Positions 23,373 through 57,122 of a DNA stretch of 64,000 bases are shown piece by piece. The stretch lies in NCBI GenBank assembly GCA_035710725.1, contig DASTCY010000038.1, positions 7,495 to 71,494 on the forward strand, in the 5' to 3' direction. The position numbers were made by a program, and so were the translations under genes. Positions within the stretch are counted from its first letter, which is position 1; each line of letters opens with the position of its first letter. A model generated the notes under the pieces. The model was not told the DNA's origin. It saw nothing but the letters and a program-made list of their open reading frames with translations, and ran no database searches. This stretch comes from Candidatus Sulfotelmatobacter sp. Lineage in GTDB: Bacteria; Acidobacteriota; Terriglobia; Terriglobales; Acidobacteriaceae.

Positions 23373-24149
23373 ATGTCTGAAACGCTGAACAACTTGCTGG
23401 CAGAACTTGTTAGTGGAAAATTGCGGGTCGTCGATCTTACGCAGCCGCTGAGTCCCCGAACGCCTCTGCTGCCGCTCCCGTCGCAATGGAATAACACGCC
23501 CGCATTCAAGATTTGGGAACTATCGCGTTACGACCATCGAGGTCCGGCGTGGTATTGGAATGGTTTCGAGACGGGCGAGCATACCGGGACGCATTTTGAT
23601 GCTCCCATTCATTGGGTTTCTGGCAAAGATCTGCCAAACAACAGCGTTGATCTTATTCCTCCGAACAAGTTTGTCGGGCCGGGATGCGTGATCGACGTCA
23701 GCGCAGAAGTAGCTAAGAATCCGGACCATTTGTTGACGCCCGATCACATTCGCCACTGGGAGGCGCAGCACGGCCGCATTCCTGCGGGGGCGTGGGTGCT
23801 GTTGCGAACAGATTGGTCGAAGCGAACGGATCCGAAGGACTACATTAACGCGAAAGAAAATGGACCGCACACACCCGGATTCGCCAAAGAGACGTCTGAA
23901 TTTTTGGCTAGTGAACGAGATGTGCTGGGCGTCGGCGTCGAGACGGTGGGAACCGATGCCGGGCAGGCCGCCACTTTCGATCCGCCCTTTCCGAACCATT
24001 ACCTGATGCACGGCAGCGGCAAGTTTGGATTGGCCAGCTTGTGCAATCTTGATCAGCTTCCGCCTACCGGTGCTGTCGTCATTGCCGCGCCGCTGAAGAT
24101 TGTCGGCGGGTCGGGCAGCCCGCTTCGAGTGATTGCGATCACGACGTGA
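23373..24149 (+). CDS. cyclase-family protein (kynurenine/aryl formamidase-like metal hydrolase)
   Basis: 258 aa. Family motif HxGTHxDxPxH is present as EHTGTHFDAPIHW. Confidence 0.8.
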   Translation: MSETLNNLLAELVSGKLRVVDLTQPLSPRTPLLPLPSQWNNTPAFKIWELSRYDHRGPAWYWNGFETGEHTGTHFDAPIHWVSGKDLPNNSVDLIPPNKFVGPGCVIDVSAEVAKNPDHLLTPDHIRHWEAQHGRIPAGAWVLLRTDWSKRTDPKDYINAKENGPHTPGFAKETSEFLASERDVLGVGVETVGTDAGQAATFDPPFPNHYLMHGSGKFGLASLCNLDQLPPTGAVVIAAPLKIVGGSGSPLRVIAITT

Positions 24150-51264: not shown

Positions 51265-51433
51265 GGTGCGAAGGAAAAACGTTCAATAATGCTCATTTTC
51301 CCCATATTTGAGCAAGTGGCTAGGTATTAACTGGCCGCAGCCGCTTTTGAAATCCGAGCAAAAGTGACCATCTTTGCTTGTCGGGTTCGCGGATAATGTT
51401 GAAGAGTGTAGCTTCACACAAGAGAGGCGATTG

Positions 51434-52102
51434 ATGGCACCAACCGCGCCGACCAAGAAAAGAACCGTTTTCGACCCACGGAAATTCCTAGCCACCATCG
51501 GCGACGGCAGAAAAGTTGTGGTCTTTCCCAGGAAACAGACAATCTTTGCGCAAGGAGACGCGGCAGACGCCGTGTTCTACATTCAGGACGGTAAAGTCAG
51601 ACTCAGTGTCGTATCCAAGACGGGCAAGGAAGCAACTCTAGGCATCCTGGGCGAGGGGCAGTTTTTCGGAGAAGGGAGCCTGGCTGGACAATCTTTACGC
51701 ATGGGGTCTGCAACCGCAATGACGGAATGCGAACTGCTGCGCATAGAAAAGAAAGCAATGATGCTTGCGCTTCACCGCGAACATGAGTTCTCCGATCTTT
51801 TCATGGCCTATCTGCTGGCACGAAACATCCGATACGAAGAAGATCTGGTCGATCAGCTTTTCAATTCCAGCGAAAAGAGATTAGCTCGCCTGCTCCTGTT
51901 GCTAGCTCGCTTCGGCAAGGACGGAGTACCCGAGGTGATGATTCCCAAGATCAGTCAGGAGACTTTGGCCGAGATGATAGGCACTACTCGTTCGCGGGTC
52001 AGCTTTTTCATGAACCGGTTCCGAGAGCTAGGCTTCCTCGATTACGGGGAGAACGGACTGCAAATACACAGTTCACTTCTGAACATTGTTCTGCACGACT
52101 AG
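51434..52102 (+). CDS. Crp/Fnr-family transcriptional regulator (cNMP-binding fold + HTH), paralog 1
   Basis: ORF 51374-52102 trimmed to ATG 51434 (AGAGAGG upstream). Beta-roll IFAQGDAADAVFYIQDGKVRLSVVSKTGKEATLGILGEGQFFGEGSL; HTH SQETLAEMIGTTRSRVSFFMNRF. No N-terminal Cys cluster, so not a classical FNR. Confidence 0.88.
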   Translation: MAPTAPTKKRTVFDPRKFLATIGDGRKVVVFPRKQTIFAQGDAADAVFYIQDGKVRLSVVSKTGKEATLGILGEGQFFGEGSLAGQSLRMGSATAMTECELLRIEKKAMMLALHREHEFSDLFMAYLLARNIRYEEDLVDQLFNSSEKRLARLLLLLARFGKDGVPEVMIPKISQETLAEMIGTTRSRVSFFMNRFRELGFLDYGENGLQIHSSLLNIVLHD

Positions 52103-52623
52103 TGCGTCGCATCCAATAAACAGAAGCTTCTCGACGGTAATGAGCCAATCAGGCATTCGCTGGATCAGGTCCGGAGAGGTGGCCCATTCTGGTCGCCACC
52201 AGCACTTCCAACAGAGTTGCTGTGTTACGAACACTTCCCGAGATCGTAATGAGTGCCTCTGACACAATAGGATGCTCTTCCGCCAGCACGTCAAGGCGGC
52301 TACTCACGTTGTGGAGTTGCTGAGCTTCGTGCAGGATCGCATTCGAACGCATTAGGGGTACACGGCTTTCTGAGAGGACCTAAGGAGAAAGGACTTCAGA
52401 TGGGCTGACTTAGCTCAGAGAACCTGAACGAGGAGAAGGTGCTAACCACCTCAACTTCAGTGTATCACTTAAGCAGTCCAGAAGTACTTCCGGGGGGGAT
52501 TCGATGTTTTAGCCATCCGAAGATGTTTCTTTTTTGTCGTAATTTCCGTCCTATGGTGCCGAGGAGATCCGCACCGGACCGCTTCCGATCGCTATCTTTA
52601 GGCCAGTTTGTTCGAGAATGTGC

Positions 52624-52785
52624 AAAATTGAACAGTTATAGCAATCGTCAACAGGTAAGCTGCCGGAAGATCAGTAAGCGCGGTCATGGGTCAGTGGCGG
52701 CATAATGCCGACCATTCCGACCCTCACGACCGCGTAATGTTTAAGTGTGGGCCGGGCCTCGGGGGAGACCCGGCCCACCTTTTTT
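52624..52785 (+). ncRNA. candidate structured noncoding RNA or leader (conserved element copy B + long hairpin + intrinsic terminator)
   Basis: 52624-52702 is homologous to the reverse complement of 56641-56727. 52679-52735 folds as a long imperfect hairpin centred on CGGCAT-A-ATGCCG. It is followed by the terminator at 52747-52785. ORFs crossing the region look spurious. The 5' end is unknown. Confidence 0.35.
52747..52785 (+). terminator. strong rho-independent terminator
   Basis: GTGGGCCGGG (52747-52756) pairs perfectly with CCCGGCCCAC (52769-52778); the 12-nt loop has 3 further possible pairs; then C TTTTTT (52780-52785). No annotated plus-strand gene ends nearby: crp1 stops 645 nt upstream. 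Confidence 0.85.
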
Positions 52786-53100
52786 GTCGCGCCCCGCCAA
52801 TGGGCGGGACACTGGCCGAGCGATCCTGCTTGCCCAAGTCGGCTCAACTTTCGTCTGAGCCTCGCCGAGTTCACCTTAGTTATCCTCACTTTCCGAACCG
52901 TGAGCTGCGAAATCGTCCACCGTGAGCTTTTTTGACCAGTCTTCGATGCCTCCACGATGAGAGAGTCTCATTAGAACCATTTTTGCGAGGGAGACGAGTC
53001 GTATACATCTCGTCCGGAAATCGCGCCTTTCAATCCACGCAACCCGCAGCAACACAGCATCACCGGGCATGCGAAGGATGATCGGACAAGAGGAAGCACA

Positions 53101-54372
53101 ATGCGCATCATGTCCTCCATTCGTTCGGCGTTGTTTGCAGCAGTACTGCTGGCCATTGCGGCGGCAGCTTACGCGCAAGTCAGCATATCGGTTTCATTCG
53201 CCCCGCCAGAGCTCCCCGTCTACGAGCAACCTCTTTGTCCCGGCGAGGGTTATCTCTGGACACCCGGGTACTGGGCTTACGCTAACGATTACGACGATTA
53301 CTACTGGGTGCCGGGTACGTGGGTGATGGCTCCGGAACCGGGCCTGCTCTGGACTCCAGCCTATTGGGGTTGGGGAGGCGACGGATATGTCTTCAATGAA
53401 GGCTATTGGGGTCCGCAAGTAGGTTTCTACGGCGGAATCAGTTATGGCTACGGATACTTCGGAGAGGGCTACCAAGGTGGCCGGTGGCAGAACGGACAGT
53501 TTTATTACAACCGTTCGGTAAACAACGTAAACGTCACCAACATCCACAATGTTTACAACACCACGGTGATCAACAACACCACCACTGTGAACCGGATCAG
53601 CTACAACGGCGGCAAGGGCGGGATCAATGCGCGCCCGAGGCCGGAAGAAGAGGCTGCGGCACGTGAGAGACACACGCCGCCCGTGGCCGCTCAGACGCAA
53701 CACGAGCAAGCTGCCCGGACACAACCAGAGCTTCGCGCTTCAGTGAACCATGGCACGCCCTCCGTCGCGGCGACTCCTAAGCCAGGAGCATTCAGTGACC
53801 GCGCCGTTATGCACGCGAGACAAACAGGGACACCTTACAACGCTCCGGTGCATCGTGCCGCATCTCAGCCACCGGCCAGTGCGCCGGCTGCGCATCCAGA
53901 GAACAATCCTGCTCGCAGCGATCGGCCCGCTCCCAATAATCGGCCGGAACCGAACCGAGCTGAGCCCAATCGTCCACCGACGTCCCAGCCGAGCGACCGG
54001 CCGGAGCCTAACCGAGCGGAACCGAGCCGGCCGGAATCGAATCGTCCGCCCGCAGCTCAGCCGAACAACCGACCAGAGCCTGACCGGCCGCCGACAGCGC
54101 AGCCGAACAACCGACCAGAGCCCAACCGCGCGGAACCGAGCCGGCCGGAATCGAATCGTCCGCCCGCAGCTCAGCCGAATGAACGGTCTCAGCCTAACCG
54201 CAGTGAGCCGTCTCAGCGGCCGCAGACGCCTCCGCCGAACGAGCGTTCCCAGCCTCAGCGCACTCCTGCTGCTGAAACACGGTCTGGACCGCAAACGCGA
54301 CCGGAGCCGAAGCCGGAAGAGAGAAAGCAGCGGAACGAACAGCCAAAGAGGGATGAGAAGCCGCCGCAGTAG
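53101..54372 (+). CDS. exported YXWGXW/WXXGXW-repeat protein with Pro/Arg/Asn-rich repetitive C-terminus
   Basis: 423 aa. Signal ALFAAVLLAIAAAAYAQ. Motifs GYLWTPGYWAY, YYWVPGTWV, LLWTPAYWGW, VFNEGYWGPQVGFYGG. The tail consists of RPEPNRAEP-type repeats. A 50-nt stretch is exactly duplicated 114 nt apart (from 54016 and 54130). Confidence 0.8.
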   Translation: MRIMSSIRSALFAAVLLAIAAAAYAQVSISVSFAPPELPVYEQPLCPGEGYLWTPGYWAYANDYDDYYWVPGTWVMAPEPGLLWTPAYWGWGGDGYVFNEGYWGPQVGFYGGISYGYGYFGEGYQGGRWQNGQFYYNRSVNNVNVTNIHNVYNTTVINNTTTVNRISYNGGKGGINARPRPEEEAAARERHTPPVAAQTQHEQAARTQPELRASVNHGTPSVAATPKPGAFSDRAVMHARQTGTPYNAPVHRAASQPPASAPAAHPENNPARSDRPAPNNRPEPNRAEPNRPPTSQPSDRPEPNRAEPSRPESNRPPAAQPNNRPEPDRPPTAQPNNRPEPNRAEPSRPESNRPPAAQPNERSQPNRSEPSQRPQTPPPNERSQPQRTPAAETRSGPQTRPEPKPEERKQRNEQPKRDEKPPQ

Positions 54373-54526
54373 ATCGTATCGCCTCCGATCCGGTAGCTCG
54401 ACAGCTCTCAACGAATGAAGCAGGGACATGTCCCAAATGGTATTGGACAAACCACTGAAGCTATCGGTGAATCAGCTCACCCGAGGCGGCTAGTCGCTTG
54501 TTGCGGGATTACGCTGAAAAGATCAG

Positions 54527-55288
54527 CTAGTCGTGGAGAACTACGTTGAGCAGTGAGCTGTGGACTTGCAGCCCCCCGTTGTAGTGTATGAAGCCCAATT
54601 TTCTGAACCGGTTCATGAAGAAGCTGACCCGTGAACGGGTCGTGCCGATCATTTCCGCCAGAGTTTCCTGACTGATCTTAGGCACTACAGTCTCGGGTGT
54701 CCCTTCCTTGCCAAAATGAGCGAGCAGCAAAAGGATCCGTGCCAGCCTCTTTTCGCTCGAATTGAAAAGCTGATCGACCAGATCTTCTTCATAACGGATG
54801 TTCCGCGCCAGCAAATAGGCCACAAACAGGTCGGAGAATTTGTGTTCCCGGTGAAGTGCTTCGATCATCGCTCTCTTGTCGATTCGCAGAATAGCGCAAT
54901 CTGTCATCGCGGTTGCGGAGCCCATGCGGAGCGGCTGGCCTGCTAGGGAACCTTCGCCGAAGAACTCTCCGTCCCTTAGTATGCCGATCGTCGCTTCCTT
55001 GCCAGCCTTGGATACAACTGTGAGTCGAACCTTGCCCGCCTGGATGTAGAACACAGCGTCAGCTGGATCTCCCTGCGCGAAGATTGCGTGTTTCTTCGGA
55101 AATGCCAGGGCTTTTCTACCCTCACCGATCGTCGCAAGAAATGCGTGGGGATCGAAATCACGCTGCTTCTTGGCCACTAGACTTGGACCTGCAGCATTGG
55201 GAGTTGTTTGCGGGATGCGGTCGATGGAAGCTTGGCGGCCAATTTTCCTTTTGCCTGGAGAACCTGCGGGTTGGCTGATAGGAGGCAT
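54527..55288 (-). CDS. Crp/Fnr-family transcriptional regulator, paralog 2
   Basis: ORF 54527-55303 trimmed to ATG 55288 (AAGGAGG with 5-nt spacer). Closely parallels paralog 1 (IFAQGDPADAVFYIQAGKVRLTVVSKAGKEATIGIL...; identical SQETLAEMIGTTRSRVSFFMNRF). Opposite strand. Confidence 0.88.
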   Translation of the reverse strand: MPPISQPAGSPGKRKIGRQASIDRIPQTTPNAAGPSLVAKKQRDFDPHAFLATIGEGRKALAFPKKHAIFAQGDPADAVFYIQAGKVRLTVVSKAGKEATIGILRDGEFFGEGSLAGQPLRMGSATAMTDCAILRIDKRAMIEALHREHKFSDLFVAYLLARNIRYEEDLVDQLFNSSEKRLARILLLLAHFGKEGTPETVVPKISQETLAEMIGTTRSRVSFFMNRFRKLGFIHYNGGLQVHSSLLNVVLHD

Positions 55289-55528
55289 AGGCACCTCCTT
55301 CATATGCCTGTCTGCTTACACAACTCTTTTTTATCTTACCACTCCACGTTTATCTGGATGGCTTGCAAGTCTCGAAGACCCGAAATGAAGGTCTGGAGCC
55401 GACTGCCTGAGCCGTTCTGCACAGTATTTCCACAGCAAATGCGCGAGTCTATTGCCGGTGTGCAAATCGAGGAAAGAGAATGTTTCTATCAAGCAAAGCC
55501 GCATGGCCTGGGATTGTCTTCCTGTTGC

Positions 55529-56425
55529 CTAGTCGCTTGCGGCACTGTGCAATTGCCGGACACTAGAACGTATTTCCTTTTGGATCGATTCAGCCACTCC
55601 CACGCGTTTGATCTGCGTCGCCAGACCAAGCTTCCTGAGCATCCAAATGCCGTACCAGTTCATGTCAATCTCGTACCACTTTAGACCGTGACGGGCCGAA
55701 GTCGGATGCGCATGATGATTGTTGTGCCATCCTTCGCCAAAGGTCAAAAGGGCAACCAACCAGTTATTGGTGGAATCATCCCTCGTGGAAAAGCGCCGGG
55801 ATCCCCACATGTGAGTTACCGAATTCACCAACCAGGTAGCATGCAACCCCACCACCGTCCGCAGGAAAATACCCCACAACAAGAGTGGCAATCCGCCGAG
55901 GGCGAACAGCAATAGGCCCAGTGCGGCCATCGGCAAGTAGTGGTACTTGGTGATCCAGAGGTGAAACTTATCTTTCGCCAGGTCGGGGACGTAGTGGGCC
56001 AGCGTAGTTGTGTCGTGATGCATGGATCGTCCCGTCAGAATCCAACCCATATGGGACCACCATTTGCCGTCTCTTGGCGAGTGTGGATCACCCTCCTGAT
56101 CCGCGAATTGATGATGAATGCGGTGGGTAGCCACCCAGAATATGGGACCGCCTTCGAGAGTGAGGGTTGCACAGACAGTCAGAAAATACTCAACCCACTT
56201 CGGAGTCCTGTATCCACGATGTGTGAGTAGCCGATGATAGCCCATCCCGATGCCCAGGCTTCCCGATACCCACCACAGGAAAATCGCAACGAAGAGAGCT
56301 TTCCAAGTAAAGAAGAACAGCGCCGCCACAGCGCCAACGTGAAAGGCCACCATAAAAAATGCGGTGACCCAGTTGATTTGGTCGTCGGCCGGCTGCTTTC
56401 GTTCGATTGGCTGAAGCTGCATCAT
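55529..56425 (-). CDS. membrane fatty-acid (acyl-CoA/acyl-lipid) desaturase, delta-9-like
   Basis: ORF 55529-56689 trimmed to ATG 56425 (GGGAGA with 6-nt spacer). Three His boxes: HRLLTH, HRIHHQF, HNNHH. N-terminal TM pair. Confidence 0.88.
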   Translation of the reverse strand: MMQLQPIERKQPADDQINWVTAFFMVAFHVGAVAALFFFTWKALFVAIFLWWVSGSLGIGMGYHRLLTHRGYRTPKWVEYFLTVCATLTLEGGPIFWVATHRIHHQFADQEGDPHSPRDGKWWSHMGWILTGRSMHHDTTTLAHYVPDLAKDKFHLWITKYHYLPMAALGLLLFALGGLPLLLWGIFLRTVVGLHATWLVNSVTHMWGSRRFSTRDDSTNNWLVALLTFGEGWHNNHHAHPTSARHGLKWYEIDMNWYGIWMLRKLGLATQIKRVGVAESIQKEIRSSVRQLHSAASD

Positions 56426-56428
56426 TGC

Positions 56429-56468
56429 TGATCTCCCACTCCAGTTTGATGTGGGTGTCCGGAGATCA
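56429..56468 (-). promoter_or_regulatory. SD-sequestering hairpin in the desaturase leader
   Basis: mRNA sense: TGATCTCC (56468-56461) ...CCCAC (56455-56451)... GTGGGAGATCA (56439-56429) GCA ATG. The SD-containing arm can pair either with TGATCTCC (8 bp) or with CCCAC (5 bp); the two pairings are mutually exclusive. Confidence 0.45.
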
Positions 56469-56640
56469 GTACCAGCAAGGGGGTGTAATAGTTTTGTATG
56501 CGGTGGCCTCGCATGTTCGGCAGAATTGTGAAGAACGAGCAGTTTTGACCAGACGCGTGTGAACGTCCAGCCTGAAACGTGTATGTAGAAATTGCGGCTA
56601 CAGACAATAACACGGTCGTCAGGGTTAGAACGGCAGGGTT

Positions 56641-56727
56641 CCCGACACTGACCCACGACCGCGTGTCGAGCTATCAGACAGACCGACACATCATACCTGT
56701 CAGCCGTTTCAATAACTGTTCAGTTTT
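56641..56727 (-). ncRNA. conserved noncoding element copy A (upstream of desaturase)
   Basis: The reverse complement AAAACTGAACAGTTATTGAAACGGCTGACAGGTA...ACGCGGTCGTGGGTCAGTGTCGGG aligns with 52624-52702. By hand: 26/34 in the first block and 20/24 in the last. Followed by its own hairpin (..GGTCGT..GGG / CCC..ACGACC..). Lies 216-302 nt upstream of the desaturase ATG. Confidence 0.4.
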
Positions 56728-56759
56728 ATACATTTCCGGAAATAAACTTTGGTCGAAAC

Positions 56760-57045: not shown

Positions 57046-57122
<77 letters not shown>

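Follow-up and report, generated by a model that had tools for sequence, protein, structure and literature searches.

In the 64,000-nt stretch of Candidatus Sulfotelmatobacter DNA analyzed here (referred to as the window), two inverted copies of a conserved and structured non-coding element, copy A and copy B, lie among genes for Crp-family regulators, a fatty-acid desaturase and a secreted protein with WXXGXW repeats. The order of features is crp1 (51374..52102, plus strand), copy B with its terminator, the WXXGXW gene (53101..54372, plus; Pfam WXXGXW), crp2 (54527..55303, minus; Pfam cNMP_binding and HTH_Crp_2), the desaturase gene (55529..56425, minus; Pfam FA_desaturase), copy A and, beyond it, a tRNA-Met gene (57046-57122, minus). 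The crp1 gene lies about 515 nt upstream of copy B, which is followed in tandem by the WXXGXW gene, an arrangement with orthologous counterparts in L013 and L015 (L-numbers denote loci fetched from other genomes or metagenomes). The desaturase gene lies 3′ of copy A, with orthologous leaders in L004 and L016, and crp2 is found downstream of the desaturase gene. The two regulator genes are inverted paralogues, 51500-52102 (+) matching 54527-55126 (−) over 546 nt at 76% DNA identity and a further 48 nt at 81%. The nearest NCBIfam models for proteins of the Crp1/Crp2 type were NtcA, LdrP and CRP, with scores far below the equivalog cut-offs of these and of FNR, and on these scores the regulators are an uncharacterized branch of the Crp family.

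A repeat search of the window returned two pairs of inverted arms, 52617-52662 with 56689-56734 (46 nt, 74% complementary) and 52679-52700 with 56642-56663 (22 nt, 91% complementary). A first-pass annotation, made from the letters of the sequence alone, had described two inverted conserved copies sharing two sequence blocks. The pattern of its second block, GCGGTCRTGGGTCAGTGKCGG, had exactly two matches in the window even when three mismatches were allowed, and none in 100 shuffles; the pattern of its first block likewise had exactly two matches in the window. Pairwise alignment extended the similarity through a 3′ arm (ACCCTSACGACCG) that had not been listed before, giving a homologous unit of about 52616-52738 (+) for copy B and 56735-56606 (−) for copy A. 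Repeat search, pattern counts and alignment thus agreed with the annotation on both the copies and the placement of the blocks.

Both copies fold with the second block as the 5′ arm of a long imperfect hairpin, as had been proposed, and all 20 distinct sequences collected in this study fold into the same three-part hairpin of about 58 nt. In copy B it occupies 52678..52735 (+), as supported by folding, covariance model and covariation, and in copy A 56610..56664 (−), as supported by folding and covariance model. The base of the hairpin consists of a helix, P1, of 8-10 bp, an A.C mismatch (18 of 20 sequences, with G-C in the other two) and a U-A pair. There follow a 2-nt UC bulge on the 3′ strand, a second helix, P2 (GGGUC/GACCC), and a 1-2-nt C(N) bulge on the same strand, whereupon a third helix, P3, begins with A-U, then G.U (a wobble seen in 19 of 20) and a pair of variable identity (U.G in 10, C.A in 6, U-A in 3 and C-G in 1). 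In copy A the A.C mismatch is replaced by G-C, and the closing pair is G.U. The tip varies in both sequence and length, with a gap between the conserved arms of 14-36 nt over which pairing is kept.

When the 20 hairpins were placed in a model-based alignment, 94.4% of the cells were paired, compared with 27-51% when the 3′ partners were slid by 1-3 columns. Double changes were found at 6 pairs and in 21 cells, against 7.2 cells in shuffles, and none of 500 shuffles reached the observed value. The covarying positions lie in outer P1 and in P3, which the search patterns had left free, while the pairs of the core are invariant and hence uninformative. These data argue for an RNA-level structure of one strand rather than a site in duplex DNA, and the variable spacing of the arms, the asymmetric and strand-specific bulges and the one-way order from promoter to terminator likewise point to a folded transcript. 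The predicted copy B transcript (52668-52786) folds as two hairpins at −66.6 kcal/mol, with z = −6.8. Coding potential was considered and rejected: the ATG conserved in the 5′ arm is replaced by GTG in copy A and L013, a Shine-Dalgarno sequence is missing, and the differences in loop length are not multiples of three. Neither did a K-turn, T-loop, loop E, group II intron domain 5, tRNA-like minihelix or RfaH ops element, as judged by informal comparison, fit the conserved residues.

The collection of hairpins was assembled with patterns of the two arms. On a species-representative genome collection such a pattern gave 6 loci, all in metagenome-assembled genomes of Acidobacteriota/Terriglobia, and a slightly looser one gave 16 more contigs from metagenomes; about one match per scan was expected by chance, as estimated from the count of specified bases. 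The taxonomic purity of the matches, together with their common flanking architecture, indicates that they are true relatives. From 18 distinct hairpins we built a covariance model, which scored copy B at 65.5 bits and copy A at 62.4 bits and located two pattern-unbiased copies, in L034 and L047, in the vicinity of genes homologous to the crp that follows the L006 hairpin; another 12 loci with crp paralogues (L035-L046) had no hairpin. All 20 distinct copies come from Terriglobia genomes or metagenomes, with two copies in the 64 kb of the window and one per locus elsewhere. The model found no additional copies in the window or the fetched loci, and the element is therefore of low copy number and not a dispersed repeat. 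Collections of plasmids (searched with blastn) and of viral contigs (searched by pattern) gave no matches.

Scanning the whole window against Rfam 15 at the gathering threshold returned tRNA only. At E-values up to 10 there was nothing relevant around copy A, and the hits around copy B fell mostly on the terminator, far below threshold; those to SmY (28.9 against a threshold of 39), ftsZ-DE (28.7 against 72) and Scr3920 lay on or through the generic terminator hairpin and were regarded as chance. The Acidobacteria RNA motifs Acido-1 (RF01686) and Acido-Lenti-1 (RF01687) reported earlier (PMC2864571) are, like the present element, phylum-restricted candidate non-coding RNAs, but neither model matched either copy, even at E up to 10. 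In three RNA discovery papers from the Breaker laboratory that were searched, the words Acidobacteria, Terriglobus and desaturase did not occur. The hairpin is thus, as judged from these comparisons, a new Terriglobia-specific RNA family that matches no Rfam model and is of a known kind. This bears out the first-pass annotation, which had recognized no RNA family here, had proposed that homologues and covariation be sought in relatives, where both were found, and had allowed for a fragment of a generic intergenic repeat, with which the low number of copies does not agree.

Genes for regulators of the Crp2 type show linkage to the hairpin, with two of them in the window, two each in L006/L007, and others in L004, L013, L021 and L002/L014. 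In the last pair, a 48-codon fragment that is 75% identical to Crp2 residues 45-92 lies just 5′ of the hairpin unit (L002 4649-4792 and L014 3615-3758, both plus), next to an intact and more distant crp paralogue, and looks like the remnant of a decayed crp gene. The genes downstream of the hairpins encode the desaturase, Crp paralogues, the WXXGXW protein, a 71-residue hydrophilic protein, small secreted proteins and a BrkB/YihY membrane protein, while genes for Dps, Hsp20, GlsB-like and receiver-domain proteins occur near hairpin units. The downstream genes are a mixed set of stress type, not pointing to one metabolite. The receiver-domain protein, of 118-161 residues (MPQSVYPELQSGVLLCIDDNEDV...), recurs near the units of L004, L008/L020 and L013; in L008/L020 its gene adjoins one for a membrane protein resembling GlsB/YeaQ/YmgE, and in L017, too, a GlsB-like gene is found 3′ of the hairpin. 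Beside the two window copies no close homologue of the receiver-domain protein was seen.

Alignment of the upstream flanks revealed, at the same distance from the hairpin in 13 listed loci with 11 distinct sequences, and also in L034 and L047, a 22-bp imperfect palindrome of the form AAnTGTGCA-N4-TGAACAGTT, with the core TG(T/A)(G/A)(C/T)-N6-GA(A/G)CA. In most of the loci with this operator, which we term class 1, a TAnnnT-like −10 hexamer follows exactly 21 nt after the core, with four of the listed hexamers departing from that form, and a usable −35 hexamer is absent. Given a transcription start about 7 nt past the hexamer, the operator would be centered near −41.5, the class II position. 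CRP and FNR class II promoters have this same −41.5 geometry. Canonical NtcA-activated promoters also have their site centered at about −41.5 (PMC3898017). The 16-bp imperfect palindrome TGTRY-N6-GARCA (which contains GTA-N8-AAC), the 21 nt to TAnnnT and the missing −35 are all shared with NtcA, CRP and FNR class II promoters; the half-sites found here (TGTGC or TGAGC, and GAACA), however, fit none of the CRP, FNR and NtcA consensus sequences. With the operator in place of a −35 element, at what would be the class II position, transcription probably needs an activator of the Crp/Fnr family.

In copy B the operator, GAATGTGCAAAATTGAACAGTT, lies at 52616..52637 (+), with its 16-bp core at 52619-52634, and the hexamer TAAGCT at 52656..52661 (+), 21 nt past the core, places the putative start near 52668. 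The operator of copy A, AAATGTATAAAACTGAACAGTT, lies at 56714..56735 (−), with the hexamer TATGAT at 56690..56695 (−), also 21 nt past the core, and a putative start near 56683. The first block of the earlier annotation (AAAAyTGAACAGTTAT...) consists of the right half-site and center of this operator, and its ACAGGTA abuts the −10 hexamer. The shared promoter that the annotation had suggested can therefore be specified as a CRP-family operator with a −10 hexamer at fixed class II spacing, recurring upstream of the hairpin. An interpretation of the first block as a sigma-70 promoter pair, in which TTGAAC as −35 would leave a 22-nt spacer, was dropped once the alignment showed the palindrome and the fixed 21-nt spacing, and the same evidence led us to drop an ECF-type (extracytoplasmic function) GAAC...CGT promoter, a sigma-54 promoter and an outward-facing promoter on the opposite strand, all considered by eye.

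Using a position weight matrix made from 14 distinct 22-mers, we found that six distinct sites within the window score 17 bits or more, compared with 0.16 expected under a first-order Markov model. The operators of copy A and copy B scored 30.1 and 29.9 bits, respectively. An operator-like site upstream of crp1 (51277..51298, 19.1 bits) has no TAnnnT hexamer at the class II distance, and another, TGAGCTTTTTTGACCA, is found upstream of the WXXGXW gene within a conserved region (52920..52941, plus). A weaker site in the desaturase leader (56533..56554, 17.0 bits), which scores 18.6 bits at the same position in L016, lacks a convincing −10 hexamer at class II spacing and overlaps the 3′ arm of a second hairpin in that leader. 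The remaining site, GCTTGTGCAATCTTGATCAGCT (24037-24058, plus, 18.1 bits), lies inside a 258-codon open reading frame (ORF; 23373-24149) and may be a chance match or an intragenic regulator site.

The conserved hairpin of copy B is followed by a U-rich linker, GUAAUGUUUAAG, and by an intrinsic terminator at 52747..52785 (+) with a 14-bp G+C-rich stem, a 4-nt loop and T6 (−29.4 kcal/mol), which confirms the terminator noted in the first-pass annotation. Canonical terminators behind a U-rich linker of 8-28 nt also follow the hairpin in L005/L011, L010, L013 and L047, and one was recognized by eye in L034. In L006 and L021 the U-tract behind the stem is weaker, and a U-run comes directly after the conserved hairpin in L009, L012, L003 and L022; no terminator was found in L008/L020, L017 and L002 or in the desaturase leaders (window copy A, L004 and L016). 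The product of copy B would probably be a stand-alone small RNA of about 118 nt, modeled at about 52668-52785.

An alternative is that the hairpin acts in cis, as in an attenuator or a riboswitch-like leader, sensing a ligand, temperature or a protein and gating the terminator in front of the co-oriented gene (the WXXGXW gene, or crp in L006, L021 and L034). The order of promoter, conserved structured element, terminator and gene is the classical layout of such leaders, the weak U-tracts of the L006 and L021 terminators would suit partial read-through, and in every one of about 13 independent contexts the gene that comes next shares the strand of the hairpin. However, hairpin and terminator do not overlap, the linker between them varying in length (about 8-28 nt), and in constrained folding, performed for copy B and part of L013, no antiterminator was found: with the 5′ arm of copy B forced open, the very stable terminator formed unchanged. 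Partial arm-to-arm complementarities noted by eye in copy B, L006 and L010 were inconsistent between loci. The genes behind the terminators, moreover, have operator-like sites of their own, several of them with a −10 hexamer at class II spacing. In L034, L021 and L006 (by eye) the crp gene behind the unit is preceded by TGAGC-N6-GAnCA, 21 nt and AATAAT or GACAAT, starting just past the U-tract, and in L010 the gene behind the unit has an operator at +310 with TAAAGT. The WXXGXW gene of the window and its L013 orthologue carry their operator-like site in a conserved region of 180 nt, with a poor hexamer (AGAGAG) at the class II distance, and the WXXGXW gene of L002 keeps this region with no hairpin unit in front of it. 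The functional heterogeneity of the downstream genes, which indicates no single metabolite, also speaks against this alternative, and we consider it unlikely.

The conserved region upstream of the WXXGXW gene (52922-53100, plus) is 74-77% identical to its counterparts in L013/L015 and L002/L014; in L013 the palindrome of its operator-like site, TGAGCATTCTTGCTCA, is perfect, and about 50 nt before the ATG comes a stretch without any variation, ATCCACGCAACCCGCAGCA. The operator-like site argues that the WXXGXW gene has a promoter of its own, 3′ of the copy B terminator. Considering both the lack of an antiterminator and the operator-like site of the downstream gene, copy B is best interpreted as a small-RNA gene in its own right, standing in tandem with a further regulon member, and not as an attenuator of the WXXGXW gene. 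The latter function, which the first-pass annotation had suggested for copy B, is hence not favored by the present data.

For copy A, the annotation was right in placing the element upstream of the desaturase, although not in the distance of 216-302 nt that it gave, as the ATG is at 56425 and the element lies about 180-310 nt from it. A second hairpin at 56547..56572 (−), homologous to the terminator stems of L047 and L005, is followed by AAAACUGC and has no U-tract. Aligning the desaturase leaders (window copy A, L016 and L004) with L047, L005 and window copy B showed that the stem is kept and the U-tract replaced by AAAAC or AAUAC. With the U-tract gone, the transcript should run about 120 nt further into the desaturase gene, and copy A is most likely the 5′ leader of the desaturase mRNA. 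Since no operator-like site of at least 12 bits precedes crp2, read-through into that gene is probable, and desaturase and crp2 are probably co-transcribed from the promoter of copy A. The two copies hence conform to the suggestion of a small-RNA gene and its cis-acting relative, copy B having promoter, hairpin and terminator, and copy A being the same unit without a U-tract, predicted to be joined to the mRNA of the desaturase. Desaturase genes do not generally carry the element as a leader: homologues at 76-81% identity, which lie in their usual, different genomic context (a paralogue), lacked the hairpin in 10 loci, and the hairpin leader was seen with the desaturase only in L004, L016/L019 and the window. 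A further leader hairpin just before the desaturase start (56428-56475, minus; CUGAUCUCC...GGGAGAUCAG) is predicted to bury the Shine-Dalgarno sequence, a prediction left unsupported because the L016 and L004 orthologues carry a C.A mismatch without a compensatory change.

Taken together, the two copies would be paralogous units with Crp-type promoters that belong to one RNA family, with copy B as a small RNA, copy A as a leader and the hairpin as a recognition site, which we regard as the best overall explanation and hold with slightly better than even confidence. The family, the promoter and the anatomy of the transcripts are the parts of which we are fairly confident. According to this explanation, a Crp/Fnr-family activator, with the products of the adjacent crp1 and crp2 as candidates, would bind the operator near −41.5 and activate transcription, and the conserved irregular hairpin would form about 10-20 nt into the transcript. 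Copy B, with hairpin, U-rich linker and strong terminator, would yield a free RNA of about 118 nt; in copy A, where the U-tract is lost, the RNA module would become the 5′ end of the desaturase(-crp2) mRNA. If Crp2 is the activator, a positive feedback loop would result. Anatomy, conservation, covariation, promoter geometry and crp linkage could be read from the loci themselves, and from these we infer the start sites, the identity of the activator, the read-through from copy A and the function of the hairpin.

The least certain step is that the hairpin would be recognized by a factor acting in trans, most likely a protein, which would influence the fate of the RNA. This role is suggested by irregularities (the A.C mismatch, tandem wobbles and two pyrimidine bulges on the 3′ strand) that nearly all copies keep while tip and base covary freely; a fixed irregular helix is typical of a protein site, and recognition by a ligand or an ion is less likely. 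In that case, the free small RNA could compete with the mRNA leaders for the trans-acting factor. That the hairpin is a recognition element common to the free small RNA and the mRNA leaders, with the small RNA as a possible competitor, is proposed only tentatively and may well be wrong. A mechanism by seed pairing is not evident, as the single strands vary between subfamilies. With regard to traits of Hfq-type small RNAs, the U-rich linker and the terminator are present, while the 5′ single strand and the linker vary between subfamilies.

Several observations weigh against the explanation given here. The consistent co-orientation of the next gene, already mentioned, is not expected for a small RNA that acts purely in trans, and it suggests duplication of promoter and leader, some read-through or a role in cis, so that some cis role or an origin by promoter duplication is likely. 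A second type of promoter lies upstream of the same hairpin in L002, L003, L005/L011 and L009/L018, about 75-100 nt 5′ of the hairpin, with the 16-bp palindrome TACRG-N6-CTGTA abutting a TTGNCN −35 hexamer, 17-18 nt and TAnnnT, and because this promoter drives the same hairpin, the link of the hairpin to the Crp-type operator is not obligatory. Part of the invariance seen in the core of the hairpin stems from the search patterns, which fixed GGTCRTGGGTCAG and ACCCTNACGA; the core is nonetheless kept in window copies A and B, L034 and L047, the only copies found without them. The single-stranded parts (5′ strand and linker) differ from one subfamily to another, and neither a seed nor a target could be identified, nor was any binding protein, ligand or target RNA identified for the hairpin. 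Start sites, termination and read-through, finally, are all derived from sequence.

Processive antitermination of the lambda nut or HK022 put type, where a promoter-proximal hairpin, alone or with a protein, would modify RNA polymerase and let it pass downstream terminators and long leaders, was also considered. The element is always promoter-proximal and co-oriented with the downstream gene, and its conservation in sequence as well as structure and its separation from the following terminator resemble the features of nut and put sites. It has no sequence or structure match to put, EAR or boxA/boxB and no match in Rfam, however, no NusG/LoaP-like or N-like gene was seen in the neighborhoods examined, and the independent promoters behind the terminators make read-through unnecessary, so that this mechanism appears distinctly improbable. 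An element acting at the DNA level, be it the inverted ends of a segment of 4.1 kb that is mobile or can invert, a REP (repetitive extragenic palindromic) or MITE (miniature inverted-repeat transposable element) repeat or a palindromic protein site, would agree with the inverted copies that flank a three-gene block and with the hairpin being a DNA palindrome as well, but is hardly credible in view of the low copy number, the absence of transposase or recombinase genes between the copies (where the genes are WXXGXW, crp2 and desaturase), the single copies in quite different contexts in other genomes, the lack of plasmid or viral matches, a distance between arms that with pairing kept suits a folded single strand and not a dimeric protein on duplex DNA, and the strand-specific bulges and single orientation of promoter and terminator.

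The nearest known kind of element is a small RNA driven by an activator of the Crp/Fnr family. In E. coli, the small RNAs FnrS and CyaR are made from promoters dependent on Crp/Fnr-family proteins. Small RNAs controlled by NtcA are found in cyanobacteria (PMC6166021). With small RNAs driven by Crp, Fnr or NtcA, the present family shares a predicted terminator-ended transcript of about 120 nt, a CRP-family site at the presumed class II position and a regulon in common with protein-coding genes that bear the same operator. It differs from them in having no homology in sequence or structure, in conserving an irregular helix instead of a seed, and in a module that is also fused to mRNAs. This predicted occurrence of one module both as a terminated small RNA and as an mRNA leader is the distinctive trait of the family. 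Conserved hairpins in 5′ untranslated regions (UTRs) that are common to a regulon and recognized by a single protein include the eukaryotic iron-responsive elements (IREs) and the 'cold box' of the E. coli csp genes. The likeness to these lies in a bulged hairpin near the 5′ end of several stress mRNAs of related function, with conservation in bulges and non-canonical pairs, and it is an analogy of layout only, without any resemblance in sequence. Riboswitch and attenuator leaders have in common with the units studied here the promoter, the structured RNA, the terminator and the co-oriented gene, but the present units lack mutually exclusive pairing, have separate operator-like sites downstream and precede heterogeneous genes.

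A more far-reaching proposal would make the hairpin a 'regulon tag' that works after transcription, a structured RNA of a new class for which there would be a dedicated reader, either an RNA-binding protein or a small ligand, and the RNA of about 118 nt would be a decoy drawing this reader off the mRNA leaders. We regard this as speculative and, on balance, unlikely. Were it true, the tag would coordinate a Crp-controlled stress regulon in Terriglobia (desaturase, Crp paralogues, and hydrophilic and secreted stress proteins), and the circuit would be comparable to that of IREs and their iron regulatory proteins (IRE/IRP) or of CsrB, with one bulged helix as its basis.

Acidobacteria are among the most abundant soil bacteria. 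A literature search found no experimentally characterized regulatory RNA or Crp-type regulon in this phylum, which is understudied yet ecologically dominant. The locus yields an RNA family with 20 distinct members, a covariance model and evidence of covariation, and also an operator consensus and promoter architecture for a putative Crp-family regulon that includes the desaturase, Crp paralogues and small stress proteins. One RNA module serving in one place as a small RNA with a terminator and in another as the leader of an mRNA, the two forms differing in the U-tract, would be a natural example of interconversion between small RNA and 5′ UTR. On present evidence the system is not mechanistically surprising, and the question it raises is what reads the hairpin.

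Two further observations concern the surroundings of copy B. The C-terminal half of the WXXGXW protein is encoded by tandem DNA repeats (53941-54180, plus), in which a 114-nt unit is copied twice at 85% with sub-repeats of 15-17 nt inside, giving a low-complexity tail rich in proline, arginine and asparagine. A second, unrelated conserved element of about 46 nt, with the core TTCAGATGGRCTGACTTAGYTCAGRGRAYCTGAAMGAG, is 89-91% identical between genomes and without a match in Rfam. Copies were found in the window (52390-52437, plus), L015 (1798-1843), L033 (3535-3580), L014 (5905-5976, minus) and L023 (2552-2575, minus), and L033 carries it without the hairpin element. In the window it precedes a 67-codon ORF on the minus strand (52149-52352), so that the gap of about 1 kb described in the first-pass annotation, there said to have no credible ORF, is not altogether empty. 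Read as its reverse complement, the element lies 15-85 nt upstream of the starts of an Hsp20 gene in L014, of this window ORF (52352-52149) and of a 106-residue ORF in L033, and it may be a promoter or operator of heat-shock type or a 5′-UTR element.

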